DNA from: Parcubacteria group bacterium
GTDB taxonomy: Bacteria > Patescibacteriota > JACQLU01
Length of the DNA: 41,714 bases
Assembly: GCA_016203935.1 (NCBI GenBank)
Contig: JACQLU010000038.1
Location: 1 to 41,714, forward strand
Direction of reading: 5' to 3'
The position numbers were made by a program, and so were the translations under genes. The notes below the pieces were generated by a model, which did no database searches, was not told where the DNA came from, and saw only the letters and a program-made list of their open reading frames with translations. Shown here piece by piece: positions 17,122 through 40,381 of this stretch. Numbering within the stretch: position 1 is the first letter of the stretch; every line of letters begins with the position of its first letter.

Positions 17122-17223
17122 GTAGAGAAGACTAGTGGGTCGCAACTTCTTCAATTTTCTCAAGCGAAGCCTTCCGCAGTGAATCTCTGGTTTTCACGAA
17201 GCCCCCCACCGGGAGCTTCTTTA
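17122..17223 (+). pseudogene. 3' stub of a divergent membrane-dipeptidase homologue with its downstream hairpin
   Basis: VEK(+1 nt)LVGRNFFNFLKRSLPQ* (stop 17180-17182) aligns with VAKIMGLNILRFLKRALKST* of 18341-19345, and is followed by the same CCGGGAGCTTCTTTA hairpin arm. Confidence 0.75.
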
Positions 17224-17296
17224 TATCGGCGAGAGTGGAGATTGTCCCTACTTTAGGGATAGGGGGTATAATGGAATCGTTCAGTACATTCCATTT

Positions 17297-17464
17297 ATGT
17301 CTTCGAAAGCAATCATTTGGATTGGAGTTATTGTGGGGTCCTACCTCGGCGGTTTCCTACCAACCCTATGGGGCACTACCGCCTTTTCATTTGCGACTCT
17401 CATCGGGAACGCCATTGGAGGACTTCTGGGCTTGTGGGTAGCGTATAAAGTAGTAAATTATTAG
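17297..17464 (+). CDS. Small Gly-rich two-TM membrane protein (55 aa), absent from the ORF track
   Basis: MSSKAIIWIGVIVGSYLGGFLPTLWGTTAFSFATLIGNAIGGLLGLWVAYKVVNY*; TATAAT about 25 nt upstream. Confidence 0.7.
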   Translation: MSSKAIIWIGVIVGSYLGGFLPTLWGTTAFSFATLIGNAIGGLLGLWVAYKVVNY

Positions 17465-17500
17465 AACCCTTTTAATTTTTCATACGTAAGGAGATGGAAT

Positions 17501-17755
17501 ATGGCACCGTCACGTAAGAAAAAACAAGAGACCTTCACCATCAAAGGCGAGGAGCTTTTGGCCAAGGTAAAAGCGCTCATCAAAGAGGGGAATGTACGAA
17601 GGATCAGTATCAAAACCAAACAAGGCAAAGTGATTGCCGAGTTTCCGCTTACGATCGGCGTGGTTGGCGTCGTGCTCGCCCCGATCTTCGCCGCGGTTGG
17701 GGCACTTGCCGCCCTTATCACCGAGTGCACGATCACCGTGGAGCGGGAAGAATAG
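17501..17755 (+). CDS. DUF4342 family protein
   Basis: GEELLAKVKALIKEGNVRRISIK...EFPLTIG...LAPIFAAVGALAALITECTITVER; SD AAGGAG. Confidence 0.85.
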   Translation: MAPSRKKKQETFTIKGEELLAKVKALIKEGNVRRISIKTKQGKVIAEFPLTIGVVGVVLAPIFAAVGALAALITECTITVEREE

Positions 17756-17793
17756 AAAGGGGGTCTCGCACAGAGCGAAACCCCTGACGGACA

Positions 17794-18213
17794 CTACCGC
17801 GGCTGGTCATTCTGCCACTTATCGGCGAAGAAACGAGTCGCAATTGCCGCCGCCCGGAGAAAGGCAAAGAGATCATCGATTACCTCTCCTTCCGGGGGTT
17901 CAATTCCATCCGCTCGCAGAGCGGCTTTTAGCCGCTCTATCCCAAGATGGCAATTATTGACAGCCCCAGCAAGAGCGACAAAAACTCCATCAGCACATGC
18001 CTGGATCCCTCCCCCAAGTTTCCCGGTTCGCGATTTACATTTCGTCATCGCCGCTCCATGGGCCCAGTCAACAACGCGTGGGATCAACTCGAGCCTGACA
18101 TGCGGCGTCATGGCGTTGACCATGCGTAACGTGGTAGTGCGATCAAACCCCCTCCACATAATATGGTCAACCGCGACCCAATACGGATTTTTCGTGCCTG
18201 CTTTAGTAATCAT
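17794..18213 (-). CDS. Hypothetical protein (139 aa)
   Basis: ATG 18213 with GGAGGG SD; promoter TTGTCT-17-TATCCT (18275-18247); terminator-like hairpin at 17756-17786. Confidence 0.65.
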   Translation of the reverse strand: MITKAGTKNPYWVAVDHIMWRGFDRTTTLRMVNAMTPHVRLELIPRVVDWAHGAAMTKCKSRTGKLGGGIQACADGVFVALAGAVNNCHLGIERLKAALRADGIEPPEGEVIDDLFAFLRAAAIATRFFADKWQNDQPR

Positions 18214-18281
18214 TCTCCCTCCTTCTGCTGGCTCCCATAACAACCGAGGATAGCACAGAAGGAAGCGAGAGACAACTCTTT

Positions 18282-18310
18282 TTGACAAGCAGTATTAAAA
18301 ATAATATCCT
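18282..18310 (+). promoter_or_regulatory. Sigma70-type promoter of the dipeptidase gene
   Basis: TTGACA (18282-18287), 17-nt spacer, TATCCT (18305-18310); divergent from the 18213 gene. Confidence 0.6.
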
Positions 18311-18340
18311 ACGCTTAATCTCAACGTAAGGAGGGGAATC

Positions 18341-19345
18341 ATGGCAGAGGAAAGGATGTTCTATGCGGATCTCCGCGGACATTTTAGTCCGCCGAGAGAG
18401 CCACTCAAGGTAAATGCCGGTCTAAAGCTTGACTTGGCCGCAATTTGTCTCGTGCCGCCAGAAGTTACCACCATCGAGGAGATCATTAAGGCCCAGCACG
18501 AGGGTCTTAAGGAGCTCCATGGGCAAAAAAATCTGAGGTTAATCCGGTATCCCTCTGATCTCGATAGCATTGGCAACGGGGTTACGGGGGTAGTGTGCGA
18601 ACTTGAGAATCCACCCAAGGATCTCAATATCGGCGAAGAGAACTCAGAGAGGGATAACATCAAAACGAACCTGCAACGTTTGCGTGATGCTGGTATTCTG
18701 ATCATCGCGCTCGCGTATCGGGAACTCAATGCCTTCGGAGGGGGTTATCGTTATCCGTACGCTCGCCTGACCCCGTGGGGTGACCAATTCCTTTCTGTGT
18801 GCAGGCAGGTGGGCATGATCGTTGATCTTTCTGGTGCCGGGCACCAGACCGCTTGGGACGCATTGATTCATCCAACCGGCGTCACATTCATCGCCTCCCA
18901 CGGCGCATGTTACGAGGTGAATGGATGTTACAATCCCCGCAATCTTCCCCGCGCGGTCCTTAGGAAGATTGCGATGGGGGGAGGGATGGTTGGAATCTAC
19001 ACTCGTACCTTTGGTCTTCATCCTTCGCAAGACCTTCTCGCTCACTTTTGTCATCACGTTGAAGCCGCGGTAGAGAGTTGTGGAGTTGATGCGGTGGCCA
19101 TTGGGAGTGATGGGGTATATGTGAAACAAGCGGAGAGCGTCTTGAGGCTAGAGCGTAGCGATCCGGATCGTTGTCCACCGGATCAACTGGGCGATCTCAA
19201 TCGACCCGACCGGATGGAGGTGCTGCGGGAGGAACTATCGAGAAACGATAGAGGAGAGGCACTCGTCTTCTCTCCCGAGGATGTTGCCAAGATTATGGGT
19301 CTTAACATTTTGCGTTTCCTCAAAAGGGCACTGAAGTCCACCTAA
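18341..19345 (+). CDS. Membrane (renal) dipeptidase family M19 protein with degenerate metal site
   Basis: NAFGGG...LTPWG, GMIVDLS, IASHG, PRNL, GGMVGI, VAIGSDG, KIMGLNILR; SD AAGGAGG. Confidence 0.8.
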   Translation: MAEERMFYADLRGHFSPPREPLKVNAGLKLDLAAICLVPPEVTTIEEIIKAQHEGLKELHGQKNLRLIRYPSDLDSIGNGVTGVVCELENPPKDLNIGEENSERDNIKTNLQRLRDAGILIIALAYRELNAFGGGYRYPYARLTPWGDQFLSVCRQVGMIVDLSGAGHQTAWDALIHPTGVTFIASHGACYEVNGCYNPRNLPRAVLRKIAMGGGMVGIYTRTFGLHPSQDLLAHFCHHVEAAVESCGVDAVAIGSDGVYVKQAESVLRLERSDPDRCPPDQLGDLNRPDRMEVLREELSRNDRGEALVFSPEDVAKIMGLNILRFLKRALKST

Positions 19346-19470
19346 GGAACACCCGCGCCAAAGCTCCCTTTCCGGGAGCTTCTTTAAATTTAGAGCGGGG
19401 TCTGACCACGCTTTAGCATACTCCGGTCGTAAGGATCCTCGCGCGGCTCACGCGGCAGGGTCTTCTTTTT
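19346..19470 (+). terminator. Multi-hairpin 3' tail ending in an intrinsic terminator; repeated at 21880-21997
   Basis: AAGCTCCC..GGGAGCTT, AGAGCG..CGCTTT and AAGGATCCT..AGGGTCTT followed by a T run. Confidence 0.7.
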
Positions 19471-19533
19471 GTGCCCATGCTATACTGAAAAGTACCGGGA
19501 ACTCACTCCCGATGGCTTATCTATATTTTCTTT

Positions 19534-21780
19534 ATGCAATTTCCCACTGGTAGAGAACGAACCTCCTTCATTCTATTAATAGCAGCGTTTTTTCTCCTCG
19601 CTGTTATGCTTATTATTGTAAGCGGGAAAGGAAGAGAGCTCCTCACCGCCATAAGCGGCACTCAAGCCGTGGTCTCGTGTAGCAGCGACGTTACCTGCGA
19701 TGACGGTTATGCGCTGACCACTGATAGCTGTGTCAATCCCGGTCTTGAGACTTCTTACTGCGCCCACACCGCCAATCGAGGGTTAAGCTACAGTTCCGGC
19801 TTTTCCTATAGTAATCTGTCGGAATGGAACGAGTCCCAACTAATTGATTTTAGCAACATTATTGAAGGGCCGATCAACTTTGCCGACATAGCCCAAAGCG
19901 ACTTCTTTCAGAGTCTCAAAAACCAAGGCAAGATCATGGCGCGCGCGGTGAGCGTGGAGGAGTACTACGGACGCACCAACGACGATATTGCGGCGAATAA
20001 AACCCAGATCATCCAAGCTATTTACGATAAATTGACTCGAATCTACCAGGACGGCTACGACGCCTTTGCCTTCGATGAATTGATCGGCTTTGAGCAGAAC
20101 GATGGCTTTCGAGAACTGATGTCGGCAGCCTCGCTCGCCATCGAGCAGGTGAAGAAAGATTATCCCACCAAGCTTATCTTTGTGTGGGGCTCGCGTTTTA
20201 TCCCTACCTCGGCGATCGGTATCGAGACTATGAAGCGGATCTTTACCTATGCCGATTTCTATCTTCCCGAAGCGTATTATGCGGATGAGCCGTATACCGA
20301 TACAGAGCTTAATGGTTTCATTCATGACGTGAGCCAGCGCTTTGAAAACTTCCATCCCGGCGTGGGACGCAAGATTCTCTTTGGATTAGCGGCTTCGGAT
20401 GTGGAAGATTGGGTGACCGATCAAAACGCCGATCAGGATTTTAGGAAGTTTGCCGACAACGAAGTCTACCTTATCAAGCAAGACGCCACCCAGAATCTCA
20501 ATACCGGTGTCGGCGTCTTCTTCTTTGGCAAAGTCAACCTTGAGACCAAGACGTGGTTTGCTAAACTCTTTAAGCATTACCTCTTTGATAATCAGACATC
20601 GCGTTTTAGTGAACGGAATTATGCACTTTCGTATCTTAAGAATCCCAGTTTTGAGAATGGCACTGCGGATTGGGCAGTAAGCGTGGGGGCAGGTGGCGAG
20701 GTAAAAACCATTACCAAAGCTTCCATTACCCCTGTGCTTGAGATTGTAAGTCCGTGGCAAAAGGTCCCCAGCAAAAATAATGTGCTTTTCCTAAAGCGCG
20801 GCACCACTGCGAATACGGTAACGCAGACGACCGCAAATCTTGTGGCGGGTAAAGAATACATGCTCGAAGTCTATTCCAAAAAGCATTCGGATGATTTCAC
20901 TCGTTCAAATCTGATTACCAGTCTTACTGATTCGGCTGGTAATACCATAAGCGCCGCCTACGAACGCCATACCCTCTTTACCAATCTTAGAGTATTTAGT
21001 TACGACTATACCTTGGCGCAATGCCAGGCGCTAAAACCTAACTGTAGTTACGATAAACATTACTGGACACGCGAGACGTTCGTCTTTACCGCGCCAGCAA
21101 ATCAAGTGCAGGTAGTGACGACTGATGCGAGTGCAGGGAGCGGAGAGATCACGTTGGTTGATTTTGTACAACTACAGGAATACGTGCGTGCCCTTGTCAT
21201 AACTCCCACTCCTACGCCGACACCTACTTCACCCACGCCAACCCCGACGTCGAGTCCGACTCCTACGCCCACCACGACACTCATCGCGAAAGGCGACACT
21301 TGGAAGTATCTCGATAACGGCACCGATCAGAGAACGGCGTGGTGGGGTGTGACCTTTAACGACGCCGGATGGAAGTCAGGGCCTGCACAACTCGGCTATG
21401 GCGATGGCGACGAGCAAACAGTGGTAAGCTTTGGTCCCAATTCGAAAAGAAAATACATCACCACCTATTTTAGGAGAACCTTCGCTGTGCTCGATCCTGC
21501 AAGTTTCTCTAAGCTTGCCCTCAGTCTCTTGCGCGACGATGGAGCGGTGGTGTATCTCAATGGCGTCGAAGTGATGCGAAGCAATATGCCCACCGGTACC
21601 ATTACGTACACTACACTTGCCGCGAGTACGATTGATGGTTCCAAGGAAACGCTCTTTCACTCAGCCGAGCTCAACCTAGGGTTGTTGGTAAGTGGGGCAA
21701 ACGTGGTAGCAGTGGAAATCCACCAGCGCCAGAAAACAAGCAGTGATATCAGTTTTGATCTGGAACTCGTTGCGTTTTAA
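19534..21780 (+). CDS. Membrane-anchored surface protein: Cys-rich module, possible glycoside-hydrolase-like barrel, CBM-like domain, PT linker, C-terminal beta-sandwich
   Basis: N-terminal TM; CSSDVTCDDG..TDSC; FAFDE and YLPEAY; LKNPSFENG; (TP)n; WKYLDNG..LGYGDGDE..TTYFRR..DDGAVVYLNG..AVEIHQ..SDISFDL. Confidence 0.75.
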   Translation: MQFPTGRERTSFILLIAAFFLLAVMLIIVSGKGRELLTAISGTQAVVSCSSDVTCDDGYALTTDSCVNPGLETSYCAHTANRGLSYSSGFSYSNLSEWNESQLIDFSNIIEGPINFADIAQSDFFQSLKNQGKIMARAVSVEEYYGRTNDDIAANKTQIIQAIYDKLTRIYQDGYDAFAFDELIGFEQNDGFRELMSAASLAIEQVKKDYPTKLIFVWGSRFIPTSAIGIETMKRIFTYADFYLPEAYYADEPYTDTELNGFIHDVSQRFENFHPGVGRKILFGLAASDVEDWVTDQNADQDFRKFADNEVYLIKQDATQNLNTGVGVFFFGKVNLETKTWFAKLFKHYLFDNQTSRFSERNYALSYLKNPSFENGTADWAVSVGAGGEVKTITKASITPVLEIVSPWQKVPSKNNVLFLKRGTTANTVTQTTANLVAGKEYMLEVYSKKHSDDFTRSNLITSLTDSAGNTISAAYERHTLFTNLRVFSYDYTLAQCQALKPNCSYDKHYWTRETFVFTAPANQVQVVTTDASAGSGEITLVDFVQLQEYVRALVITPTPTPTPTSPTPTPTSSPTPTPTTTLIAKGDTWKYLDNGTDQRTAWWGVTFNDAGWKSGPAQLGYGDGDEQTVVSFGPNSKRKYITTYFRRTFAVLDPASFSKLALSLLRDDGAVVYLNGVEVMRSNMPTGTITYTTLAASTIDGSKETLFHSAELNLGLLVSGANVVAVEIHQRQKTSSDISFDLELVAF

Positions 21781-21807
21781 GCGGCCCCCTCCCCGCTACC
21801 TCCGGTG

Positions 21808-21997
21808 CAAGCAGCATAAAAATAATATCCTACGCTTAATGTCTTTGCATTCTTCAAAAGGGCACTGAAGTCCACCTAAGGAACGCATGCGTCGAAGCTC
21901 CCTTCCCCGGGAGCTTCTTTAAATTTAGAGCGGGGCGTGACTACGCTTTAACATACTCCGGTCGCAAGGATCCTCGCGCGGCAGGGTCTTCTTTTTT
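21808..21997 (+). pseudogene. Internally deleted second copy of the dipeptidase unit
   Basis: 21808-21839 matches 18286-18318 and 21835-21997 matches 19301-19470, joined at a shared CTTAA; retains in-frame LNVFAFFKRALKST*. Confidence 0.88.
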
Positions 21998-22065
21998 GCG
22001 CAGGTTTGTTATAGGTGTGCAGTTATTCTAGAATGAAATTACACACTCGCGATTAACTTTTTCCT

Positions 22066-25000
22066 ATGCACGTTCCTACCGGAAAAGAGCAGGGGCCGTT
22101 TCTCGTCCTCGTCACGGCGTTTGTCGTCGTGGTTGTTATTTTTATTTCGCTTATAGCGGGCGCCGATAAGAAGTTACTTACCTTTATCGGCACCGCGAGC
22201 GTCGCGCCAAGGGGGGCGAACACCACGCTCGATTCTTTTTCGCAGCAGAAAAAGGATGGGTCACAGATTTCTAAGCCAACCGTCACAGTGATACGCGGTC
22301 AAAGGGAGCTATGGCTTCAAAGCCTTTCGAACGAAGAATCAATCTTTTTGGGAAGCGTGGGGAACAATCAGAACTCTGTGAGCTACTATGTTTCACCAAG
22401 AGAACCGCCCCCGGGGTATCGCGAGACGGCTCTTGCGGGAAGCATTATCATTGAGTCTCCGGAGAAGGGTACGCTCGCGAAGAAGAACGCAGAGTTGAAT
22501 CAAGAGATCGAGTCGGTAAAAAAACAACTTTCACGCACGACCGATACGAGGAGTAGGGCGACCATCGAGGCGCGTCTTACTACGTTGATTACCAATAAGC
22601 GATCAACCCTTGTGCGCGAAAAGAGCGTCTTGGAACAAAAACAGACAGCCACGCTCGCTGCCCTGCAAAGAATTGCCCCCACTGTCAGTATTACGCAGAA
22701 ATTTATAACCTCTTTTAACGGGTTTACCGCGACCGCAACCCCCAAGGATACTCAAGCATTGAAACAGCAAGGCTACCGCGTGTGGCGTAACGCGGAAGTG
22801 CACGCATCGCTTACCGAATCAGTCCCTCTTATTAATGCCGACGATGTGTGGGCAACCAAAGACGCCAGCGGCGTCAATGTGACAGGGAGGGGGATACGCA
22901 TCGCCATCATTGATACTGGCATCGATTATCGCCATCCCGACCTTGGCGGTTGTCTGGGAGCGAGTTGTAAAGTAGCCGGCGGCTTCGATGTAATAAATAA
23001 TGATGCCGATCCTATGGACGATATGGGGCACGGTACCCATGTGGCAGCCATCGCCGCGGGGAAAGGCGCTCTCAAAGGGGTGGCGCCCGACGCGTTATTC
23101 TATGCATATAAAGTTTTGGATCGTTACGGATCGGGAAGTTTCTCCTTGGTCATTTCCGGCATCGAACGCGCGCTTGACCCCAATCTCGATGGAGACCTCT
23201 CCGACGGTGCGCACGTGATAAATCTTAGTCTTGGCGGCATCGGTAATCCCGATGATCCACTATCGCAGGCGGTTGATAATGCGGTGCTGGGAGGCGCTGT
23301 GGTAGTGGTGGCCGCGGGGAATAGAGGTTACCCCAAAAGCATATCGAGTCCCGGAACGGCAAGAGACGCAATTACGGTAGGAGCGAGCACCAAAGCAGAT
23401 TTGCTCGCGTGGTTTAGTTCACGAGGCCCCGTGGTATGGAATAACCATACACTCGTTAAACCAGATCTTGTGGCACCCGGCGCAGAAATTTGTGCCGCAC
23501 AATGGGAGAATTGGTTATCCGAGCGTCAGTGTGTCGATGATGGGCATATTCGACTGGATGGAACTTCCATGGCTTCTCCGCACATCGCGGGAGCAGCGGC
23601 GCTCACAAAGCAAGCTCATCCAGAGTGGAGTCCCGCCCAGATCAAAGCCGCCGTCAGGGGTACCGCGGTTCAATTGGGATATACTCTTTTCGATCGTGGA
23701 GCGGGGAGACTCGACGCGTACTCTCCGGTAAGTATTGTGGGATCACCGCCAGTCGCAAAGCTTTCCCCTCTCAATACCAACGGCATTACAAGGCCTGTGA
23801 TGGGTACCGTTGCGAGTGAGAACCTTATGCAGTGGCAGTTATCGTACACGTTGCTCGGGAGTGGAACGAACGGTAATTGGACTGAACTTATTCGTTCTTC
23901 GACACTGCCAACGAGCGCCTCTCTTTTCTCGTGGAATACCAATTTTATCCTTGATGGCGAATATCTCCTTCGTCTCTCGGTGACGCAACAGGATCGTCTT
24001 CAAGCGACCGATTACGGATACTTGGTGATTGATAAACTTCGTATTTCCCACCCACGCGAGTCCGACGTGTTCCGTAGCGGCAGCACAGTGAACGTCGAAG
24101 TCGCTCTTGAGGCTTTGGGCGCTCCCGCCATTCTTCTTGAGTATGGCGTAGGACGTTCGCCCAGCCAGTGGCGAGAAATTTCGCGCAGCCAAAACGTGAG
24201 GCAGACATGGGATACCAGCGGTTTGGCTACTGGGTGGTATACCCTGCGCGCCTCACTCACAGGAAGTACGGCGTCGGCCGATCAAGAAACGAGAATGATC
24301 TACCTCGATGCCACGCTTAAACCGGGCTGGCCCCAACGGCTCGACTTTGATCGATACGACTGTGGTCAATCCGAACCGTGCCCCGCTGCTCATGGTCTCT
24401 TTGAAACCGTGGTAAGCGACCTCGATGGAGACGGCGCGAGTGAAATTATCGTAGTCGCGGGGAAAGTCGCTCCCTATGTGACGGCATATCGCGCTGACGG
24501 CGAGCGTATCTGGACCGCTCATACGAGAATCTATGATAGTCCTGCGTCGTTTTCCTTACCCCTCGTTGAAGATTTGGATAACGACGGCAATAAAGAGGTG
24601 ATCGTGTATGTTGGTCGCGGTTTAAATGATCCCGGGAGACTCTACGCGTTCACTGCGCGAGGTGCGCTAAAATCTGGTTGGCCTTTAGACCTTCCTTATG
24701 ATATTCCCACTATGGTTGCCGCCGACATCAATCGTGACGGAAAGCGGGAACTTATTCTTAAAGGCAATACTGGTCTCCCCGAGGCCATGACCATCGTAAG
24801 CGCCGAAGGCAAGGTTATGTCTCGCTGGAATCTTTCCGATATCGCATGGCTCACGTTTGGTCCTTTAGGGACGCCAGCTGTAGGTAATTTTGATGACGAT
24901 GCTGATCTAGAGATAGTGATCGCACGTCCCGCGCCCCACGCCACCGCGAATACAAATGACGGAGAACTCCATGTGTTCAACTCCGACGGTTCTGAAGTGA

Positions 25001-26358
25001 ATGGCTGGCCTCGTGTCATGCAGGAAGGGTATGCCCTCGGATCATCGCCGGTCGTCGCCGATCTTGATCGCGATGGTCGTGATGATATCGTGGTGGCGCT
25101 ACAGTATGCCTCCGATACATTCCCAGATGTGCGTTACGGAGGCGTCTATGCGTTTGATCGACGGGGCGCGTTGCTTCCCGGATGGCCCGTTGGCAAGGGT
25201 CGGTATTATGCATCGTCGCCATCCATCGGCGATCTCGATGGCGACGGAGACCTCGAAATTGCGGTGAGTAATTACCAAGCCACCACCGAGGTGTATCACC
25301 ATGACGGAAGCATGGTCCAAGGCTGGCCTCAGCGGACTCGCTCCTTTGATCTCTATGCAACCATCATGGGTGATGCGAACGGCGATGGAAAACCTGATGT
25401 GCTCACCGCCACCAGTACCTACATTTTAGAGGGAGGTCTCTATGCTTGGAATGCGCAAGGTTCTCTCCTTCCCGGGTTTCCTAAACATACAGAAATCGAC
25501 GCGGTTGCCTATTACCAGCCCCCTCCCACGCTCACCGACGTGGATGGCGATGGAAGAATCGATTTGGTGGGGAGCACACCGTTTGAGTATGATTTTGCCC
25601 GTGAGCAGTATAAGTGGAGGAGTTCGATTTATGTATGGGATCTCGACGCCCGAACGAATCCTGCGACCATGCACTGGCCGACATTCCATCACGATGCGCA
25701 AAGAACCGGCCGCTATGCGCCGCTTGGTCCTGCTCCCGATACTACTCCTCCCACCGTTTCGATCACATCGCCTACCCAAGGAGCTACCATCTCCGGGGTA
25801 GTCATCTTAAGCGCCTCTGCTGCCGATAACGTAGCGGTCGAGCGAGTTGAATTCTACTATCACAGTCAATTTATCGGCGTCGACTATACCTCACCCTATA
25901 CGACAGAGTGGGATACCACCAAAGTTTCCAATACCTCCTACAACCTTATTGCGAAAGCGTATGATCAGGCGGGCAATATCGGTATCTCCCCAGTGAGGAC
26001 CGTAACAGTGAATAATATTTTGACTCCTACACCCTTACCGACGAAGACAAAAACGCCTACTGACACTACTCCCCCTACGGTCTCTATTACTCAACCAAAA
26101 ACCGGATCCACGGTAAGCAAGGGCGCGTCGGTAACGATTACCGCTACGGCAACTGATAATGTGGCAGTCACCAAAGTCGAATTCTATATTGGTACCTCAA
26201 GTTTGAGTCTTCTCTGTACCGATACGACCGCGCCCTACTCGTGCCTCTGGAAAGCACCCACCATTTCCGTTCGTGAGCCGTACCAGATCGAAGCGCGGGC
26301 GTATGATGCGAAGGGGAATCGCGGCGTCTCGAGTAGAGTATTTGTGGGAGTGAAATAG
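22066..26358 (+). CDS. S8 subtilisin-like serine protease with FG-GAP repeats and two C-terminal Ig-like domains
   Basis: IAIIDTGID, HGTHVA, AAGN, GTSMASPH; I9-like FNGF prodomain; many DLDGDG-type repeats; two DTTPPTVSIT..ADNVAV..VEFY units. Confidence 0.93.
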   Translation: MHVPTGKEQGPFLVLVTAFVVVVVIFISLIAGADKKLLTFIGTASVAPRGANTTLDSFSQQKKDGSQISKPTVTVIRGQRELWLQSLSNEESIFLGSVGNNQNSVSYYVSPREPPPGYRETALAGSIIIESPEKGTLAKKNAELNQEIESVKKQLSRTTDTRSRATIEARLTTLITNKRSTLVREKSVLEQKQTATLAALQRIAPTVSITQKFITSFNGFTATATPKDTQALKQQGYRVWRNAEVHASLTESVPLINADDVWATKDASGVNVTGRGIRIAIIDTGIDYRHPDLGGCLGASCKVAGGFDVINNDADPMDDMGHGTHVAAIAAGKGALKGVAPDALFYAYKVLDRYGSGSFSLVISGIERALDPNLDGDLSDGAHVINLSLGGIGNPDDPLSQAVDNAVLGGAVVVVAAGNRGYPKSISSPGTARDAITVGASTKADLLAWFSSRGPVVWNNHTLVKPDLVAPGAEICAAQWENWLSERQCVDDGHIRLDGTSMASPHIAGAAALTKQAHPEWSPAQIKAAVRGTAVQLGYTLFDRGAGRLDAYSPVSIVGSPPVAKLSPLNTNGITRPVMGTVASENLMQWQLSYTLLGSGTNGNWTELIRSSTLPTSASLFSWNTNFILDGEYLLRLSVTQQDRLQATDYGYLVIDKLRISHPRESDVFRSGSTVNVEVALEALGAPAILLEYGVGRSPSQWREISRSQNVRQTWDTSGLATGWYTLRASLTGSTASADQETRMIYLDATLKPGWPQRLDFDRYDCGQSEPCPAAHGLFETVVSDLDGDGASEIIVVAGKVAPYVTAYRADGERIWTAHTRIYDSPASFSLPLVEDLDNDGNKEVIVYVGRGLNDPGRLYAFTARGALKSGWPLDLPYDIPTMVAADINRDGKRELILKGNTGLPEAMTIVSAEGKVMSRWNLSDIAWLTFGPLGTPAVGNFDDDADLEIVIARPAPHATANTNDGELHVFNSDGSEVNGWPRVMQEGYALGSSPVVADLDRDGRDDIVVALQYASDTFPDVRYGGVYAFDRRGALLPGWPVGKGRYYASSPSIGDLDGDGDLEIAVSNYQATTEVYHHDGSMVQGWPQRTRSFDLYATIMGDANGDGKPDVLTATSTYILEGGLYAWNAQGSLLPGFPKHTEIDAVAYYQPPPTLTDVDGDGRIDLVGSTPFEYDFAREQYKWRSSIYVWDLDARTNPATMHWPTFHHDAQRTGRYAPLGPAPDTTPPTVSITSPTQGATISGVVILSASAADNVAVERVEFYYHSQFIGVDYTSPYTTEWDTTKVSNTSYNLIAKAYDQAGNIGISPVRTVTVNNILTPTPLPTKTKTPTDTTPPTVSITQPKTGSTVSKGASVTITATATDNVAVTKVEFYIGTSSLSLLCTDTTAPYSCLWKAPTISVREPYQIEARAYDAKGNRGVSSRVFVGVK

Positions 26359-26381
26359 GAACTGTCCATTTCCATGTCACA

Positions 26382-26410: not shown

Positions 26411-26430
26411 TGGGAAGATGTCCTCATTGT

Positions 26431-29241: not shown

Positions 29242-29270
29242 TTGACAATCATTAAGAAAGGTGATATGGT
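29242..29270 (+). promoter_or_regulatory. Sigma70-type promoter of pgsBC
   Basis: TTGACA (29242-29247), 17-nt spacer, TATGGT (29265-29270) with extended TG. Confidence 0.6.
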
Positions 29271-29301
29271 ATGTGTTTCGTGTAAGCCTTTCTTCTTATA
29301 T

Positions 29302-30507: not shown

Positions 30508-31565
30508 ATATTCTTGACTTTTTCCAAATCCAAAATGGGATCGATCTTGAGGTGATGCGTACCACCTTTCTTTTCTCGCTCGTGATAAGCTATTTCGTCT
30601 ATTACAAGCGAGGTTTTATCCCCGGAGGGCTTATCGTGCCCGGGATCTTGGTACTTCTCCTCGCGACGCCGCTTAAGTTGCTGCTCGTGATAGGAATAAG
30701 CCTTGCGGTAGCTATTACGTATGGGGTGCTGGTAAGGACCCTCGCGCGTGAGCATATTATTCTGCCGGATGAACGACTGCTTATTCTCGTGTTGCTCGCG
30801 CTCTCCTTTGCCTCGCTGGCATCGTGGTTTACTCGAATCGAATGGGAAACTGCCGGGCTTGGCCATCTCACCATGGTAGCGCCGGCACTCATTGCCGAGA
30901 GACTCTCTGAGCGCAACCGGTGGGAGAGCACAAAGGCGTTCCTCGTGGCAGTGGGACTTACCGCAGCATTTCTTTTCTTAGTGCGAATAGTAATCCTGCC
31001 ATATCTTCCTTCTGCGTATGTCTCCTTCATGAACGGGCTCTATAGCTCCTATCATGAAGTTGAGATTATGCCCATAGGGTGGCTCTATTTCTTCTTCGGC
31101 CTTGCCACCTTCATAAGTTATATTCTCTTACGTGTGTTTAAGATAAGGGCGGTGGGGATCCTGGCGAGTGCCTATCTTGGAATGATTGCGAGTGAGCCGC
31201 TTCAGCTTCTCTTTGTGGCAACAGTCGTAGGCCTTGCGGGAATGATGATGGCATTATTTGCTCGCATGCTGATGCTCGCGGGATACCGACGGCTGGTTCT
31301 CACCGCGCTCGTTACTGGAATGGTGTATCCTTTAGTAGAGATGCTTTTTCTTGTGGTGACGCCAAGAAACTTTGTGCCCTTTTTCGGCTTACCTATTGCC
31401 GGAATTATGATCTCTGCGATCGTGGTGAACGAACTTATCCGTCCGCATCGGAGGAAAGTACTTTTAGGAAGCACGGTGATGGGCGGGACGATGGCTCTCG
31501 CCACGCTCGCAATACTCGTGATACGGCATATTCCGGCGTTTGCCGGATTCTCCCTCTTTCGCTAG
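30504..31565 (+). CDS. pgsC: PgsC/CapC family membrane protein, double length (353 aa)
   Basis: GFIPGGLIVPG and GLGHLTMVAPALIA in the first half; related RAVGILASAYLG and GIMISAIVVN in the second; ATGA overlap with pgsB. Confidence 0.8.
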   Translation: MNILDFFQIQNGIDLEVMRTTFLFSLVISYFVYYKRGFIPGGLIVPGILVLLLATPLKLLLVIGISLAVAITYGVLVRTLAREHIILPDERLLILVLLALSFASLASWFTRIEWETAGLGHLTMVAPALIAERLSERNRWESTKAFLVAVGLTAAFLFLVRIVILPYLPSAYVSFMNGLYSSYHEVEIMPIGWLYFFFGLATFISYILLRVFKIRAVGILASAYLGMIASEPLQLLFVATVVGLAGMMMALFARMLMLAGYRRLVLTALVTGMVYPLVEMLFLVVTPRNFVPFFGLPIAGIMISAIVVNELIRPHRRKVLLGSTVMGGTMALATLAILVIRHIPAFAGFSLFR

Positions 31566-31652
31566 CGGCCACGGTGCCTGGTAGTGAGGTATGCTACACT
31601 AGTAGTGGAATATTGGTCGGGTCTAAGAGATGCCAGGCTTTTATTCAATCCT

Positions 31653-31725
31653 CGGGCTGTGGCGCAGTTGGTAGCGCGCGTGCATGGGGTGCATGAGGTC
31701 GCGGGTTCGAGTCCCGCCAGCCCGA
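31653..31725 (+). tRNA. tRNA-Pro(GGG)
   Basis: Cloverleaf: acceptor CGGGCTG/CAGCCCG, anticodon GGG 31686-31688, T arm GCGGG-TTCGAGT-CCCGC; CCA not encoded. Confidence 0.96.
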
Positions 31726-31739
31726 GAATTGAATAAAAG

Positions 31740-31850
31740 ATGAGATCGGGAGTTTCCGCCTCATGCCAAAGGAAGATCCGCCTGTGGCGGAAGAGGCGGA
31801 CCCCGTCGAATTTATCCTGTCGGATGACGGGGCAAATCTCCCCACCCCGA
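31740..31850 (+). pseudogene. tRNA-Pro-like 3' half interrupted in the T loop by a 78-bp palindromic insert
   Basis: Removing 31755-31832 gives ATGAGATC-GGGAG-TTCAAAT-CTCCC-CACCCCGA. Confidence 0.75.
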
Positions 31851-31865
31851 GCAGTATGAGAAAAG

Positions 31866-31901
31866 ATGAGGTCGGTCGCCTACGGCGACCGCCAGCCCGA
31901 G
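31866..31901 (+). pseudogene. Second tRNA-Pro 3' half, T arm replaced by a palindrome (att-like scar)
   Basis: ATGAGGTCG[GTCGCCTACGGCGAC]CGCCAGCCCGAG; both flanks are identical to the tRNA and 31889-31901 equals 31714-31726. Confidence 0.75.
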
Positions 31902-31915
31902 GGAAGGCTCTCATC

Positions 31916-31963
31916 TAGATTCCGGATCCTGGCTCGCCAGCAGGCGGGCAAGTCCGGAATGAC
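31916..31963. repeat. REP-like element of the GATTCC...GGAATGAC type with a nested palindrome
   Basis: TAGATTCCGGATC-[CTGGCTCGCCAGCAGGCGGGC]-AAGTCCGGAATGAC. Confidence 0.6.
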
Positions 31964-31981
31964 AGAGGATCTGTTTTCGAG

Positions 31982-32551: not shown

Positions 32552-32559
32552 CGATGGAC

Positions 32560-33276: not shown

Positions 33277-33348
33277 TTGAGCGGCGCGCCCCATTTTGCG
33301 GGGCACGAGATGCGTCTTGTGAGAGCGTATTTCAAAAATACGTTATCT

Positions 33349-33463
33349 GTCATCCCAGACTCGGTCGCCTGCGGCGACCAGGATCTGGGATCCAGACGCC
33401 GTCCCTGCGAAAGCAGGGAATCAAAGCGAGACCTGGATTCCCGCGTCGCGACGCGGGAATGAC
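33349..33463. repeat. Cluster of REP-like palindromes (GTCATCCC...GGGATCC / GGATTCCC...GGGAATGAC)
   Basis: Contains GGTCGCCTGCGGCGACC (near-identical to 31874-31890), TCCCTGCGAAAGCAGGGA and ATTCCCGCGTCGCGACGCGGGAAT. Confidence 0.7.
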
Positions 33464-33497
33464 AAATGTGATGGAAACTGTTTTTGAGATAAGCTCT

Positions 33498-34196
33498 ATG
33501 GAAAACTTGAATGGGTCTGCAAAAACCCCGATAGAAAATCAAGAAAAGAATTTGAAGTTGGAACAGCTAAAACAAGAAGTAGAGAGTATCGTTGATAGAA
33601 CAGGAAGACCAATAGATGAAGGTATAAGAGAAACCGTAGTAATGTTTAAGGCACACGGATTGCCTACATCTGATTCTTGCGAGGGTCATGTGGAAAGGGG
33701 TTTGCCCGTTCCTTACGTTGAGGTTGCTGCTCCAAATGAGCCAGAAGAACGGTTTGTCGGCCAGAATAAAATCTTTGCGGAAGTGGCTGAAAAATACAAT
33801 CTTACTATTGAAGAGCTTGCTGCCGCAATGATTGACGAAGCCTACTGGGAAGCCATGAGAGAATGTTCGCAGAACGAAGAAACAGAAGGATACAAAAAAT
33901 GGAGAGAAGAAAACGAAAGATTACGCATCGAGGCTGATAGGCTTTTGGAAGCATTTTATAAGGGGAGAAAGGTGGAGCCAGACGTCAAGTTACAAATTAC
34001 AGAAGGGGTGGGGCATTTTAGGGTCCATAATGGCGGAAAAGATTATCAGCCAATCATTGAAACCACACAGCAATTTTCAGAGGAAGAAAAGAAAATGCGA
34101 TCAAAAAAAGTGAAGAAGTATCGCGCGGAAATGAGTGCGTTTACACAATTTTTGAAGGATACCTATTTTGGTTTTTCGTCCAAGGAGGAAAAATAA
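33498..34196 (+). CDS. Hypothetical protein with D..I...V......G..T..SCEGH motif
   Basis: Long AT-rich ORF containing IDEGIRETV..GLPTSDSCEGH; the upstream extension in the ORF track runs through repeats. Confidence 0.75.
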   Translation: MENLNGSAKTPIENQEKNLKLEQLKQEVESIVDRTGRPIDEGIRETVVMFKAHGLPTSDSCEGHVERGLPVPYVEVAAPNEPEERFVGQNKIFAEVAEKYNLTIEELAAAMIDEAYWEAMRECSQNEETEGYKKWREENERLRIEADRLLEAFYKGRKVEPDVKLQITEGVGHFRVHNGGKDYQPIIETTQQFSEEEKKMRSKKVKKYRAEMSAFTQFLKDTYFGFSSKEEK

Positions 34197-34208
34197 AACA
34201 AATTTTCT

Positions 34209-34263
34209 ATGCAAAGCGGGAATCTCGAGATCGCTCTCTTCGGTGGCGGATGCTTTTGGTGCA
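34209..34263 (+). pseudogene. msrA: 5' stub of an msrA homologue
   Basis: MQSGNLEIALFGGGCFWC; 34227-34263 matches the intact msrA 5' end at 34 of 37 nt, and all three differences are synonymous. Confidence 0.9.
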
Positions 34264-34273
34264 TCCGGGCAAG

Positions 34274-34382
34274 TAAACCCCGTTACTTGACCACGGGGCA
34301 TTAAGAACCCTGTGGCAAGTACAGAAGGGGAACACAGTAACCCTGTAGCGAGACCACAGGGCATCTCAAGTAACGGGGTAAA
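34274..34382. mobile_element. Miniature inverted-repeat element (about 100 bp)
   Basis: Terminal inverted repeats CCCCGTTACTTGA (34278-34290) / TCAAGTAACGGGG (34366-34378), TAAA direct repeats on both sides, and internal ACCCTGT..CCACAGGGCAT repeats. Confidence 0.6.
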
Positions 34383-34492
34383 GCGACAAAGTGAAGGAGC
34401 TCGTACGGAATACCCCTAGACGCTTGAATTTATTAAAGATACGTGATATCTTCTACAGAATTTGATCACTATCCTGCAAGGTGCATTTCTTT

Positions 34493-35989
34493 ATGGAATC
34501 TCAGCAATTAAATCCTGCAACATCCGGCCCACAACATAGCTTGGGAAGAAAACCATTCTTTAAGACGACGGTGGGACAACTGGCATTCGTAGGCATTGTT
34601 TCGCTTATACTACTCATTGCGCGGAATGATGGGCCGGTGCCCAAATTGGAACACGCGCAGGAGAAACGCACGATGTCGTCTCCTGTGGTTGAGAATGTTG
34701 GACGAATCCTTGAGATAGGGAAAGAGTTGCAAGATGATATTATGCCATCGCCATCGTTGCCGTCCGTCCCTCCTCAACATTTCTCGGCAACTCCATTAGC
34801 GAAAAGCACGCCCACCTCAATCCCAAGTGCACCACTTGTAATACGCCAAGAGAGTTTCTCTCAAGATCTAGTGATTCCTGTCGACGAGCTCGTTACCGAT
34901 AGCACATCACCCTTTCAAGCGATTATCCTTGCCCAAAAGAGTGGTTATCACACCGTGGTGGTGCGGAGGTCTATGGTGGAGGGCTATGAGACTATCTTGT
35001 TCGAGTATAATGAGAGGATAGAGGGAGACTTTTCGGCGGGTAACCTCTGGGATGCGCTCCCTCCCAATATTGCATTAGCGCCGAACAAAAATCAGATTGC
35101 CTACATCGATGAGGATGGCCTCAAACTTTTTTCTCTCGTTACTGTGCAGCACATCCCACTAATCACAATCATACAGCCACAACCAGAGAACTCTGATGGA
35201 TCGCCTTTATGGTCAGTCGAAGCATTACATGGTACCTATTTTTTGGTTCGTCCTCGCTGGTCAGCTGACAGTCGCTATATTAGTTTCTCACAAGCGCATT
35301 ACGAAGGGGCCTCGTACGGCATGTATGATACAGTAAGTGGCACATACGATTGGATCCGAGGAAAGGACGATGAGCATATAGGACACATTTCCCTTACATG
35401 GTCTCCCGTGGGTCTCTCTGTACTCGAACCAAGTTCAGAAGGCTATCGTCATCCCGGACTCTTTGTTTCCACAGACAATGTTTGGGAGGTAAAAAATCTC
35501 GCTAAAAAGTTTGGCAAACGCGACGCACAATTCTCCGCGGCCAACTTTTCACCCGACGGCACGAAGATCGCCTTTACCTATCGAGATGTCTACGAAGATA
35601 AGGAGAATATCCTCGCGTTTGTAGATAGCAGCGGCCGCAATTTTAGTATCGTGGATGACAAAGGTTGGAAGGAAACTCCTTTCTTTGCTCCCGACGGCTC
35701 ACATATATATTACGTGGTCACCAAAGAAGGACGTGCAACGTTGGTCGCGTACGAGATTGAATCGAAATCTTCATCAGAGGTCTTGCGCTTCCCAACTGAA
35801 TACGATGTGTGGGAAGAACCACAATGGATAGGAAGTTACCTCGTCCTCCAAGGGAATGCACACGGCGTGGATACTACTCTTCGTGATGATGTCAAGAGAC
35901 TTATCATATTGGATTTAGAAAATCGCATCATGGTCTACGCGAGTCCTGCATACGATTACTATACGACCTTCGCTGGCTTTATCAATTGA
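34493..35989 (+). CDS. Membrane-anchored TolB/WD40-like beta-propeller protein
   Basis: N-terminal TM, P/S/T-rich linker, repeats PRWSADSRYISF, WSPVG, FSPDGTKIAF, FAPDGSHIYY. Confidence 0.75.
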   Translation: MESQQLNPATSGPQHSLGRKPFFKTTVGQLAFVGIVSLILLIARNDGPVPKLEHAQEKRTMSSPVVENVGRILEIGKELQDDIMPSPSLPSVPPQHFSATPLAKSTPTSIPSAPLVIRQESFSQDLVIPVDELVTDSTSPFQAIILAQKSGYHTVVVRRSMVEGYETILFEYNERIEGDFSAGNLWDALPPNIALAPNKNQIAYIDEDGLKLFSLVTVQHIPLITIIQPQPENSDGSPLWSVEALHGTYFLVRPRWSADSRYISFSQAHYEGASYGMYDTVSGTYDWIRGKDDEHIGHISLTWSPVGLSVLEPSSEGYRHPGLFVSTDNVWEVKNLAKKFGKRDAQFSAANFSPDGTKIAFTYRDVYEDKENILAFVDSSGRNFSIVDDKGWKETPFFAPDGSHIYYVVTKEGRATLVAYEIESKSSSEVLRFPTEYDVWEEPQWIGSYLVLQGNAHGVDTTLRDDVKRLIILDLENRIMVYASPAYDYYTTFAGFIN

Positions 35990-35998
35990 CACCTTGAT

Positions 35999-36544
35999 AT
36001 GGCGCGCATATCTGAAATCGCTCTCTTCGGTGGTGGATGTTTTTGGTGCACCGAGGCGATTTATAATGAACTTAAGGGAGTTACCTCGGTAACTTCTGGT
36101 TACTCGGGTGGCGCCAAGGCAAATCCGTCGTATGAAGAAGTGAGTAGCGGCACCACTGGGCATGCCGAGGTGATTAAAATCGAGTTTGATCCTTCGGTAA
36201 TTTCATACCGAGATTTGCTCTCGGTCTTCTTCTCTTCGCATGATCCCACCACCATGAATCGTCAAGGAAACGATGTGGGTGAGCAGTATCGGTCGGCGAT
36301 CTTTTATACCTCACCAGAACAGAAGCGCGCCGCCGAAGAGTGTATCGCCGAGCTAGGTAAGGACGGCGTCTTTGAAAAACCGATTGTCACGAAGGTGGAG
36401 CCTTTTAACGCATTCTATCCTGCCGAGAAGTATCACGAGCGCTATTACGAACGAAACAGAACCGCGCCCTATTGCCAGCTCGTGATCAATCCAAAACTAA
36501 AGAAACTTAAAGAGCGGCATGCGGCACTTCTCAAAGAGGTATGA
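35999..36544 (+). CDS. msrA: Peptide-methionine (S)-S-oxide reductase
   Basis: GGGCFWCTE, GYSGG, TGHAEV, HDPT..NRQGNDVGEQYRSAIF, AEKYH..YY, YC. Confidence 0.97.
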   Translation: MARISEIALFGGGCFWCTEAIYNELKGVTSVTSGYSGGAKANPSYEEVSSGTTGHAEVIKIEFDPSVISYRDLLSVFFSSHDPTTMNRQGNDVGEQYRSAIFYTSPEQKRAAEECIAELGKDGVFEKPIVTKVEPFNAFYPAEKYHERYYERNRTAPYCQLVINPKLKKLKERHAALLKEV

Positions 36545-38310: not shown

Positions 38311-38318
38311 CATCTTCC

Positions 38319-38354
38319 AGAAGCGGCGCGATTACATCAACCCGCTTCTTTTTA
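38319..38354 (+). terminator. Intrinsic terminator
   Basis: AGAAGCGG...CCGCTTCT followed by TTTT. Confidence 0.6.
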
Positions 38355-38377
38355 TACTGCATAAGTTAAGATACATC

Positions 38378-38406
38378 TTGCATTCCCTTCGCCAAATCTC
38401 TAAAAT
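38378..38406 (+). promoter_or_regulatory. Sigma70-type promoter
   Basis: TTGCAT, 17-nt spacer, TAAAAT, followed by AAGGAGG SD. Confidence 0.55.
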
Positions 38407-38426
38407 AACGCCAAGGAGGACGCACC

Positions 38427-38936
38427 ATGGATGCCACTAGTCATACCCGCGAAGGAATCGAAACTTCCCGTATATCCGTAGGGGAGGAGGTAGAGAGTCT
38501 CGCAACCTACATCGATATGTTCCTCGACGTCCATGTTCGTTCCGAAGGGAGAAGGGAGCTAAGGGGAACACCAGTAGTAGTACCGCTCGGTAACCGAGGA
38601 GGGAAACGGCTTACCAAGGAGGAGTTTGCTCTTCTCAAAGAGCGCTATCGAATAGTGTGGACCGTGGAGCAGAGAAAGTCGGAAGCCGGCACCGATGAGC
38701 TCGTCTTTTCTCCGCTTGAGAGAAAGGGACGATTGCGCCCATGGATCCTGCTTGCACGGGGGAGTAGGTGGTTTCGAAAGCGGGCGCAATTATCGAGAAG
38801 GGCGGTGTTCGTCCGCGACGGCGAGAGAGGAGAGGGGACTTCACCGAATCCTGTTCGTTCAGCGCGAGGGCTCTTACGGTTTTGGCCGTGGAACTCGCGA
38901 CGCGAGCGCGGGGTAAGCAAATCCATCAAAAACTAA
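38427..38936 (+). CDS. Hypothetical protein (169 aa), self-contained orphan gene
   Basis: AAGGAGG SD, own promoter and a downstream hairpin; no family recognised. Confidence 0.6.
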   Translation: MDATSHTREGIETSRISVGEEVESLATYIDMFLDVHVRSEGRRELRGTPVVVPLGNRGGKRLTKEEFALLKERYRIVWTVEQRKSEAGTDELVFSPLERKGRLRPWILLARGSRWFRKRAQLSRRAVFVRDGERGEGTSPNPVRSARGLLRFWPWNSRRERGVSKSIKN

Positions 38937-39095
38937 GTAGCCCGCAACCGCGGGCATCTTTCTTCCGGCACATTCGGAATACTTTAGGTAGGTGCTGGAT
39001 TTATTGATTTTAGAGCCATTTTCTGCGATGATGAAAAAAAGAAATCCGCGTCAATCTGCGTATAGATCCGCGCCGATCCGCTTCTATCTCTATCG

Positions 39096-39158
39096 ATGAT
39101 GAACCCAGAAAACGTAGTAAAAGGCCGAATCGCCGAGAATGAAAAATGTCATTCCTAA
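39096..39158 (+). pseudogene. 5' stub of a PD-(D/E)XK nuclease homologue
   Basis: MMNPENVVKGRIAE(NEKCHS*) versus MQLENVVKGRIAE at 39848; ten codons with identical amino acids and 6 nt differences, all synonymous. Confidence 0.88.
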
Positions 39159-39173
39159 ACATAATACTCCCCT

Positions 39174-39824
39174 ATGCATTCTAAATTCTTGAGGATCTCT
39201 CTTGGTATAATGATTGTTTCATTAGGTATCCTTGTGACATTGCTTTGGCAGAATCGGGTTAGAAAAGCGCCGAAAGAGGATAATAGAATTTTGAATGTCG
39301 CACAATTTTTAGCAAATCCTAGATTTGACAGAGAGATTCAGTTAATGGGAGAGGTAGGAGCGATCGGTCAACTCCGCTGTCCATGTTTTGAGTTAACATC
39401 GGGAGGTAGGGATATGACAGTTTGGTATGGCGTCCCGGAAGCACCGGCAACCATAGGAGACATTACCAATGGTGGTTCAGTTATTGTGAGGGGACACTTT
39501 CGCATCTCTCCTGCTCAATCAGGGGGAGACTTCTTGGCGTATGCGATCCGTAAACATGAGAGTGCGAAAGAAGCTGTCGCACGTCTTTTTAGTGAGAAGT
39601 ATGGTACGGCAGCAGATGAAGTAAGAGTATCCATTTGGCAGGAGATTCCAAATTATGTCTTTGGAGACGTGGATATTCCGAATGAGTTATATACGCATAC
39701 ATTTCTCGCATCGTATACTGAAGATGAATGGACGATCGTACATGACATCAATGGGGGAATATCCTGTAAGACTAGGTGGGAGCTTGGGTTTCCAGAGCAG
39801 ATTGCTGCCAATTGTGTAGAATAG
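39174..39824 (+). CDS. Membrane-anchored hypothetical protein (216 aa)
   Basis: N-terminal TM helix, beta-rich region with CPC and a further Cys pair. Confidence 0.7.
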   Translation: MHSKFLRISLGIMIVSLGILVTLLWQNRVRKAPKEDNRILNVAQFLANPRFDREIQLMGEVGAIGQLRCPCFELTSGGRDMTVWYGVPEAPATIGDITNGGSVIVRGHFRISPAQSGGDFLAYAIRKHESAKEAVARLFSEKYGTAADEVRVSIWQEIPNYVFGDVDIPNELYTHTFLASYTEDEWTIVHDINGGISCKTRWELGFPEQIAANCVE

Positions 39825-39847
39825 GATGGAATTTCATTTTTGCCTAT

Positions 39848-40381
39848 ATGCAGCTTGAGAACGTAGTGAAAGGAAGGATTGCCGAGACGCTCGTGAATGA
39901 GCTTCTTCGCCGTGCCAAGTTTCGCGTCTATCGTTTTGGGTACGAGGCGGTACTCCAGAATCTCACACAAATTGAAGAGAACGTGCTAGGAGGATCTGAT
40001 GAGGTGAGTCAACAGATCCGCTCGATCCCGGATTTCCTTATAATCAAAGAAAAGCAGCCATTCTTTGTTGAAGTAAAATTTCTTGCCATTCGCAGGACTA
40101 ACCTTAAGTTTTATACGAAATCAGGAGAGGAACTGGGAGAGCAACTTATAAGAATTAGGGACTTCTGGAAGGCCAAAATAATTATCGTCACCGGCGAACT
40201 CCCTTACTTCAATTTTTTGGAGGATCCTTACTTTAATCCAACGTCGAAGGATCTTTATCTCCAGCCGCTGGAAAAGGAAAGAGATTTAGGAATTACTGAA
40301 GCGATGATAAGAGAATTTAATCGTCTCGTGGAGCAATACTTGAGAGCGACCGTCCTACAAAGTAGTCTTAAAAATCTTTAA
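39848..40381 (+). CDS. PD-(D/E)XK superfamily nuclease
   Basis: KGRIAE helix, IPDFLI and FVEVKF catalytic pattern. Confidence 0.75.
   Translation: MQLENVVKGRIAETLVNELLRRAKFRVYRFGYEAVLQNLTQIEENVLGGSDEVSQQIRSIPDFLIIKEKQPFFVEVKFLAIRRTNLKFYTKSGEELGEQLIRIRDFWKAKIIIVTGELPYFNFLEDPYFNPTSKDLYLQPLEKERDLGITEAMIREFNRLVEQYLRATVLQSSLKNL

Follow-up and report, generated by a model that had tools for sequence, protein, structure and literature searches.

Duplicated gene ends on either side of foreign DNA have been described in several bacterial systems. In E. coli conjugation with one-sided homology, partial gene-end duplications were found in 56 of 60 clones, mostly via circularization and a single crossover (PMC3240628). 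Classical homology-facilitated illegitimate recombination (HFIR), as summarized in the same source, combines insertion with the deletion of ~1 kb of resident DNA; in naturally competent bacteria, it leaves one homologous and one illegitimate joint, the latter at 3-10 bp of microhomology. In rhs C-terminal displacement and in the type VI secretion system (T6SS) effector-immunity arrays of V. cholerae, an incoming module displaces a gene end and leaves a polarized fragment, for which circle or HFIR models have been proposed (PMC2935791, PMC5361080). Islander integrase islands are bracketed by a restored target and a displaced fragment (PMC4383910). This study concerns comparable short copies of gene ends ("stubs") beside intact genes on contig JACQLU010000038.1 of a Parcubacteria group bacterium (Patescibacteriota, GCA_016203935.1). 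The window analyzed is the whole 41.7-kb contig; the genome (coded G000) comprises 1.00 Mb in 97 contigs with 51.5% GC, at 87% completeness and 0.53% contamination. The scars are probably the result of a homology-anchored insertion-duplication of taken-up DNA.

The arrangement shares with the E. coli insertion-duplications the one-sided homology, the foreign DNA flanked by the intact gene on one side and part of that gene's end on the other, and the lack of an integrase. Those duplications arose in laboratory conjugation with identical repeats of 109-950 bp, whereas the present ones are natural, involve many chromosomal genes, and consist of stubs of 33-120 nt that are 70-94% identical to the gene. 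As in HFIR, one joint would be homologous and one illegitimate, but the illegitimate joint lies inside the end of the anchor gene and duplicates it. Microhomology of 5 nt is seen on contig C60, the one joint that can be scored without its donor. In rhs and T6SS arrays, toxin tips are swapped at dedicated loci, while here the anchors are housekeeping genes with unrelated cargo. Unlike Islander islands, the inserts carry no integrase, mostly fall below the 2-kb floor, and have many targets and variable ends. The chemistry of recombination is known; what differs is the housekeeping-gene setting across the phylum. No paper on polarized gene-end stubs at housekeeping genes in Patescibacteria was found in the literature search, outside of which subscription journals mostly lay.

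The original prediction listed six orphan terminal gene fragments in the window. The pattern is real but narrower than proposed: the 5' stubs of msrA and of a putative nuclease are present as claimed (Table 1), while the dipeptidase and tRNA-Pro cases are of other kinds. The msrA stub lies 1.7 kb upstream of the intact gene. Over 12 codons identical in translation, the two copies differ by three synonymous and no non-synonymous changes; extending the comparison to 15 codons gives four and three, respectively. The nuclease stub, 710 nt upstream of the intact gene start at 39848, has ten identical residues carrying six synonymous base changes. Its first residues, NPENVVKG, fit the commonest family start, xPEN[IV]LKGR, among 105 homologues; taken alone, it is a weak genome-wide match (tblastn E 2.6). 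The statement that differences are synonymous only over the matched stretch is true for both stubs, although the argument is partly circular. The putative nuclease has no match in Pfam, NCBIfam or PADLOC, and PF08722 is present in some of its homologues.

In a strict scan, the first and last 35 residues of each gene were aligned to unannotated DNA within 6 kb and eight geometries were scored. The Parcubacteria genome gave nine matches in 1,601, all on the same strand and either 5'-upstream or 3'-downstream (N-terminal upstream, 3/805; C-terminal downstream, 6/796), against 0/4,697 in the six control geometries. After one weak match had been dropped (C83; 56% identity, internal stop, 5.9 kb distant), eight stubs in seven events remained: msrA, nuclease, dipeptidase B, ferredoxin, D-2-hydroxyacid dehydrogenase, ychF, and fmt together with a beta-propeller gene as a double stub. 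A 33-nt tRNA-Glu 5' stub, with a repeat as the sole insert, also fits the pattern. Parts of six other genomes of the phylum (1.98 Mb) gave 4/3,364 matches against 0/9,864 in controls, of which three were kept (miaA, dut and a GH130 glycosidase). Further examples came from targeted loci, namely miaA (G419), msrA (G090, whose joint sequence is shared by G443), ychF (a 5' stub in G027, a 3' stub in G072), secA (in a record of Doudnabacteria) and msrB (in a record whose label is doubtful). The same scar occurs in other Patescibacteria at miaA twice, ychF twice, dut, msrA and secA.

The stubs differ from their genes as alleles would. Pooled over 14 stubs, the proportion of synonymous differences (pS) is 0.48 and that of non-synonymous differences (pN) 0.11, a pN/pS of 0.23. 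Exact duplicates, simulated as a neutral stub and a selected gene and filtered like the observed stubs, had median ratios of 0.34-0.43 with 5th percentiles of 0.28-0.33, and two selected alleles gave 0.12-0.16. The observed value lies between both simulations, as expected for diverged alleles with some later decay. In the ychF stub of G072, ten residues are identical, with seven codons synonymously changed and no non-synonymous change. The cargo also looks foreign, with the GC content at third codon positions (GC3) in the lowest 8% for seven of ten cargo genes of the Parcubacteria genome. The msrA cargo gene is among these lowest 8% and has a homologue in only one of 400 genomes of the phylum. 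The cargo had been described as mostly membrane-anchored surface proteins; this applies in the window, whereas elsewhere an MNT-HepT pair (at ferredoxin), orphans and paralogues are found.

Gene-end copies could also arise in situ, by a tandem duplication that decays and whose gap is filled later, and this reading fits the dipeptidase region. There, copy B consists of the 37 nt preceding the dipeptidase (18286-18322, repeated at 92% identity) and the last 14 dipeptidase codons with ~120 nt of downstream DNA (86%), both parts being fused through a shared 5-nt CTTAA. Copy B is an internally deleted duplicate of the whole unit rather than a plain 3' stub, and the large genes flanking it are homologous at the N-terminus. 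The duplication takes in the promoter block, the terminator and the paralogous N-termini of the surface genes. Copy A is an old relic (~60% DNA identity, protein score 40) lying upstream of the gene, a polarity opposite to that of every strict scan match. Both predicted dipeptidase copies are real, though neither fits its original description. As a general cause, tandem duplication is disfavoured and appears unlikely: random decay would fill four geometries where two are seen, pN/pS lies below the simulated null, the G072 stub shows only synonymous codon changes, and the cargo is mostly of low GC3. The conserved DNA 3' of the dipeptidase belongs to no Rfam family and was found in none of 200 other genomes.

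Other stub-bearing Patescibacteria have relatives with empty sites. In 21 of 29 loci of family f4 (G003 excluded), an ABC permease gene ends at most 30 nt from miaA. In G003 and G419, a miaA stub occupies this ancestral permease-adjacent position, followed by different cargo in each and then by intact miaA. Both flanks of the permease-miaA junction are retained and the end of miaA is present twice, without the loss of resident DNA that accompanies classical HFIR. The stubs differ in length, with ~28 codons in G003 and ~11 in G419. Variable ends are also seen at ychF, where three genomes have between them a 14-codon and a 10-codon 3' stub and one 5' stub. The ychF stub of the Parcubacteria genome sits just before rpsF, a gene that directly follows ychF in three of 29 loci and lies within one or two genes of it in three more. 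In genus g15, the genes around msrA vary too much for an empty site to be defined, and neither G023 nor G031 has a relative of its family or genus for comparison. The check in relatives proposed for the window loci yields no empty site. On C60, one duplicated end is 99% and the other 83% identical, and the 5-nt microhomology at the joint is common to both parents.

These end points also bear on the possibility that the stubs are attL/attR displaced fragments of eroded integrase islands whose integrase was later lost. The restored target and displaced fragment in direct orientation match the island signatures (PMC4383910), the 13-nt repeat of the tRNA-Pro end and the shared end point of two msrA stubs would fit, and tyrosine and serine recombinases are encoded on other contigs. 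In total, two tyrosine recombinases (one Xer-like, one short), two resolvase-domain matches, one DDE match and one Y1 gene were identified, all on contigs other than those with stubs. As predicted, no integrase or transposase is present among the 24 window proteins (Pfam), and a scan of 33 proteins (targets, cargo and neighbours) found no integrase either. The tyrosine recombinases are Xer-like or truncated, and the scores against the integron integrase model TIGR02249 (124 and 44) are below the cut-off of 265, so that no IntI was identified. Eroded islands are a doubtful explanation, as the inserts measure 0.04-2.5 kb, at least 11 unrelated genes are targeted, and end points vary at miaA and ychF. 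By-eye inspection of 11 joints revealed neither a common motif nor a shared cargo boundary motif. A sequence-specific recombinase acting in trans, which had been considered, is not indicated because cut positions differ within one and the same target, and the label "cassette" was overstated because no shared boundary motif is seen.

Insertion-duplication of taken-up DNA would proceed as follows. A fragment from a diverged relative, presumably entering by transformation, would carry one or more new genes beside an allele of a resident gene X. RecA would pair this allele with X, leading to a single homologous crossover, and the other fragment end would be joined illegitimately, often via a few shared bases, tens of bases inside the resident gene end. 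This joining might involve the displaced resident flap, or the trimmed fragment might circularize and integrate by a single crossover; the data cannot separate these two routes. The product would be stub-cargo-gene at a 5' end and gene-cargo-stub at a 3' end. As X would stay intact and no neighbour would be deleted, such an event could survive in a dense genome, and neither a virus nor an integrase would be required. Long duplicates would be lost or trimmed by deletion, leaving short diverged stubs, and trimming of this kind is seen in copy B; the shortness of the stubs may stem from joints close to the homology border or from the survival of trimmed repeats. The genome encodes comEC, dprA and recA, while MutS, MutL and Ku have no match in this 87% complete genome. 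Saccharibacteria are naturally transformable via comEC (PMC10633639). The idea of the resident end as a scar agrees with the polarity, the synonymous excess, the foreign-looking cargo, the empty sites at other Patescibacteria and the uptake genes without a MutS/MutL match, but it does not extend to the tRNA and dipeptidase cases. The HFIR reading would hold for the combination of one homologous with one illegitimate joint; classical HFIR deletes, and its insertion-duplication counterpart is the best fit here.

Several observations weigh against this explanation. At 87% completeness, MutS and MutL may have been missed. Donors were not found, and the sole homologue of the msrA cargo in the phylum is not adjacent to msrA. 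The stubs are shorter than the experimental duplications, and the pN/pS null rests on assumed mutation settings. At miaA, the stub resembles the family starts only slightly better than the start of the intact gene does (15 vs 9 of 29). No empty site is available for the loci of the Parcubacteria genome, which has no relative below phylum level among the genomes compared (best metagenome neighbour 43%), and no cargo-skipping joint was among the matches listed for Logan contigs of four runs. The msrA stubs of this genome and of G090 end at about the same codon, which hints at a site preference or a detection bias. As a separate observation, several joints lie 4-12 nt from a cargo gene boundary (ferredoxin, ychF, msrB, G419, G031).

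The source DNA was detected in four groundwater runs, of which X1 is possibly the source sample. The comparison with Logan contigs took in copy A and the joints of copy B and msrA. Contigs of X1 bridge the msrA joint (33313-34304) and the copy B joint (20990-21883) with zero letter differences, and copy A is covered by contigs from X1 and X4. A chimeric assembly of co-occurring strains might be suspected, as the metagenome bin is fragmented and the supporting runs all come from one study. It is very improbable, with two joints bridged by an independent assembly without differences, contamination of just 0.53%, and the same scar in three genomes recorded as single contigs (G003, G023, G031).

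The event rate amounts to 7 per 1.00 Mb in the Parcubacteria genome against 4 per 2.36 Mb in other genomes of the candidate phyla radiation (CPR; p 0.02). Outside the window, it is 4 per 0.96 Mb (p 0.17), so without the window the anticipated excess over comparable genomes is not significant. The nearest comparison genomes are at the phylum level, with sizes of 0.5-2.8 Mb. In 47 non-CPR loci (774 kb), a small control centred on msrA, no credible stub was found, and the CPR and non-CPR rates do not differ significantly (p 0.10). Neither an excess in this genome nor a CPR specificity is established. A simpler gene caller was noisier, with expected versus control matches of 8 vs 4 in the Parcubacteria genome, 5 vs 3 in the six CPR sets and 2 vs 2 outside the CPR; its extra matches were judged by eye to be false open reading frames (ORFs) or repeats. 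Phylum-wide queries with msrA (match in 177 of 401 genomes) and short miaA queries (145 of 301), which are insensitive to stubs, added only G090.

Rejected candidates comprise a palindromic repeat (L228), an internal repeat (L335), a weak match (L211), a real signal peptide (C94) and a guaA candidate inside a small ORF. The match dropped from the six genomes (G031, L087:3860-6434) is a diversity-generating retroelement with target gene, template repeat, bAvd and a reverse transcriptase-like gene, the last named from its sequence appearance.

The two tRNA-Pro 3' halves of the original prediction are not true halves: an exact 13-nt repeat and a degenerate copy lie around repeat DNA. The 13-nt repeat is the sole other copy genome-wide, and the tRNA and its end copies are separated only by elements resembling repetitive extragenic palindromes (REP), without a gene. 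On contig C18 (19136-19330), the tRNA-Glu 5' stub (91% identical) is likewise followed only by a REP-like element before the intact tRNA. Four of ten joints in the Parcubacteria genome lie at most 3 nt from the edge of a dispersed repeat, against a background of 2.2% (P 5e-5), a test to which the two tRNA joints were added after the repeats had been noticed; among the protein-gene joints only, two of eight abut a repeat. Repeats within 60 nt of joints show no excess (3/8 vs 25% background). In a hairpin test of 17 joints, stems measured 4-9 bp, with 2/17 at 8 bp or more against a background of 7.5%.

ISCR and REP-associated tyrosine transposase (RAYT) systems, with their HUH enzymes, hairpin-type ends and, in ISCR1 integrons, duplicated flanks, offer a possible analogue for the repeat-edge joints (PMC3575428, PMC2817692). 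A REP-associated HUH (Y1) nuclease might cut or join single-stranded donor DNA at a REP edge in trans while RecA resolves the other end, as in ISCR one-ended transposition; in a passive variant, the repeats would stop exonuclease trimming. Besides the four repeat-edge joints, this would suit the ychF 3' stub of G072, which brackets only a 42-nt palindromic spacer, and the Y1 gene of contig C38, with the repeat family of the dehydrogenase joint directly after it and that of the msrA joint 270 nt further. Such a one-ended capture is nevertheless improbable. It is kept as a rival because two of the four joints were chosen post hoc and later insertion of repeats into dead stubs could mimic a joint end. 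The hairpin test was negative, and most joints in other genomes show no repeat or hairpin by eye. The Y1 protein is truncated by the contig end, where its upstream flank is lost, and its score of 37.8 is below the NCBIfam threshold for RAYT (80). Unlike in the described systems, the inserts carry no transposase; the link is positional and concerns a minority of joints.

Patescibacteria gain many genes; for the route, a survey names conjugation, competence and transduction without deciding between them in its conclusion (PMC12455944). Insertion-duplication would explain how genes are added to dense genomes without neighbour deletion. The polarized stub is a simple computable signature that maps an insertion to a few bases and separates resident from donor allele without close relatives, making the role of natural competence testable in thousands of genomes and in transformable Saccharibacteria. 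In a broader and rather unlikely version, integrase-free gene gain would be phylum-wide: any conserved gene end could receive incoming DNA, and the non-homologous joint would be set by REP-like repeats that a resident RAYT-like HUH nuclease helps to cut or protect. If so, a single mechanism would spread REPs along with surface or defence genes, and each transfer could be dated from its stub.

Table 1. Features of the stub loci and their surroundings (window positions unless a contig is named).
Feature	Position	Strand	Basis
Dipeptidase copy A, old 3' relic with terminator-like tail, upstream of intact gene	17121..17256	+	
Block upstream of dipeptidase, repeated at 21808-21843	18286..18322	+	alignment
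Intact membrane dipeptidase (Peptidase M19)	18341..19345	+	Pfam PF01244, E 2.7e-28
748-aa membrane-anchored protein, N-terminus homologous to next large gene	19534..21780	+	no Pfam match
Dipeptidase copy B, internally deleted duplicate	21808..21996	+	alignment; joint bridged by X1 contig
Subtilase/FG-GAP/Ig surface protein, second unit of duplicated array	22066..26358	+	Pfam scan
tRNA-Pro(GGG)	31652..31726	+	
REP-like dispersed palindrome; same family 3' of tRNA-Glu 5' stub on contig C18	31753..31803	.	
Degenerate copy of tRNA-Pro 3' end and downstream spacer	31828..31875	+	
Exact 13-nt tRNA-Pro 3'-end repeat, abutting dispersed palindrome (~31871-31891)	31889..31901	+	
msrA 5' stub, 21 codons	34209..34271	+	alignment to intact msrA; joint bridged by X1 contig
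REP-like inverted-repeat element beginning at msrA joint	34271..34382	.	dispersed-repeat analysis
msrA cargo, membrane-anchored PD40 beta-propeller	34493..35989	+	Pfam scan
Intact msrA	35999..36544	+	Pfam PMSR
Dispersed repeat preceding nuclease stub	39042-39088		
Nuclease 5' stub, 13-14 codons	39096..39138	+	alignment to intact gene
Nuclease cargo, 216-aa membrane-anchored orphan, GC3 in lowest 1%	39174..39824	+	Pfam scan, GC3 ranking
Intact putative PD-(D/E)XK nuclease	39848..40381	+	motif read from sequence
Type II methyltransferase downstream of nuclease	40386 to contig end		
Y1/RAYT-like gene, then palindromic repeats of two genome-wide families	G000 C38:1-1050		

Other observations were made near these loci and in the compared genomes. 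In the locus L221, labelled Gammaproteobacteria, the order is msrA, PDDEXK_3, msrB, Fic/RhuM and an msrB stub; its content is CPR-like and the label may be wrong. A gene with a LAGLIDADG domain lies just upstream of the GH130 stub in G031 (L093:10092-10898). Tandem paralogue arrays, whose members have near-identical 5' ends or upstream blocks, are present in the Parcubacteria genome at C94:389-7124 and C49:3684-5424. Just downstream of the repeats following the C38 Y1 gene, a 5,527-aa repetitive protein is encoded. Copies of dispersed repeats are also located inside the open frames of miaA and dnaE (window 3564-3592 and 7924-7960), like coding palindromic insertions, and at C51:22270-22895, a site that also has dispersed repeats, rplK is separated from rplA by a 158-aa membrane gene.

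Following the duplicated array, the window encodes a 910-aa surface protein with three PA14 repeats and CBM6 and GH16 domains (26431-29163), one 492-nt repeat of which is skipped by a contig of run X2. In the stretch 29242-31565, pgsB, which exceeds the NCBIfam cut-off, and a pgsC-like gene suggest possible poly-gamma-glutamate synthesis in a Patescibacterium.

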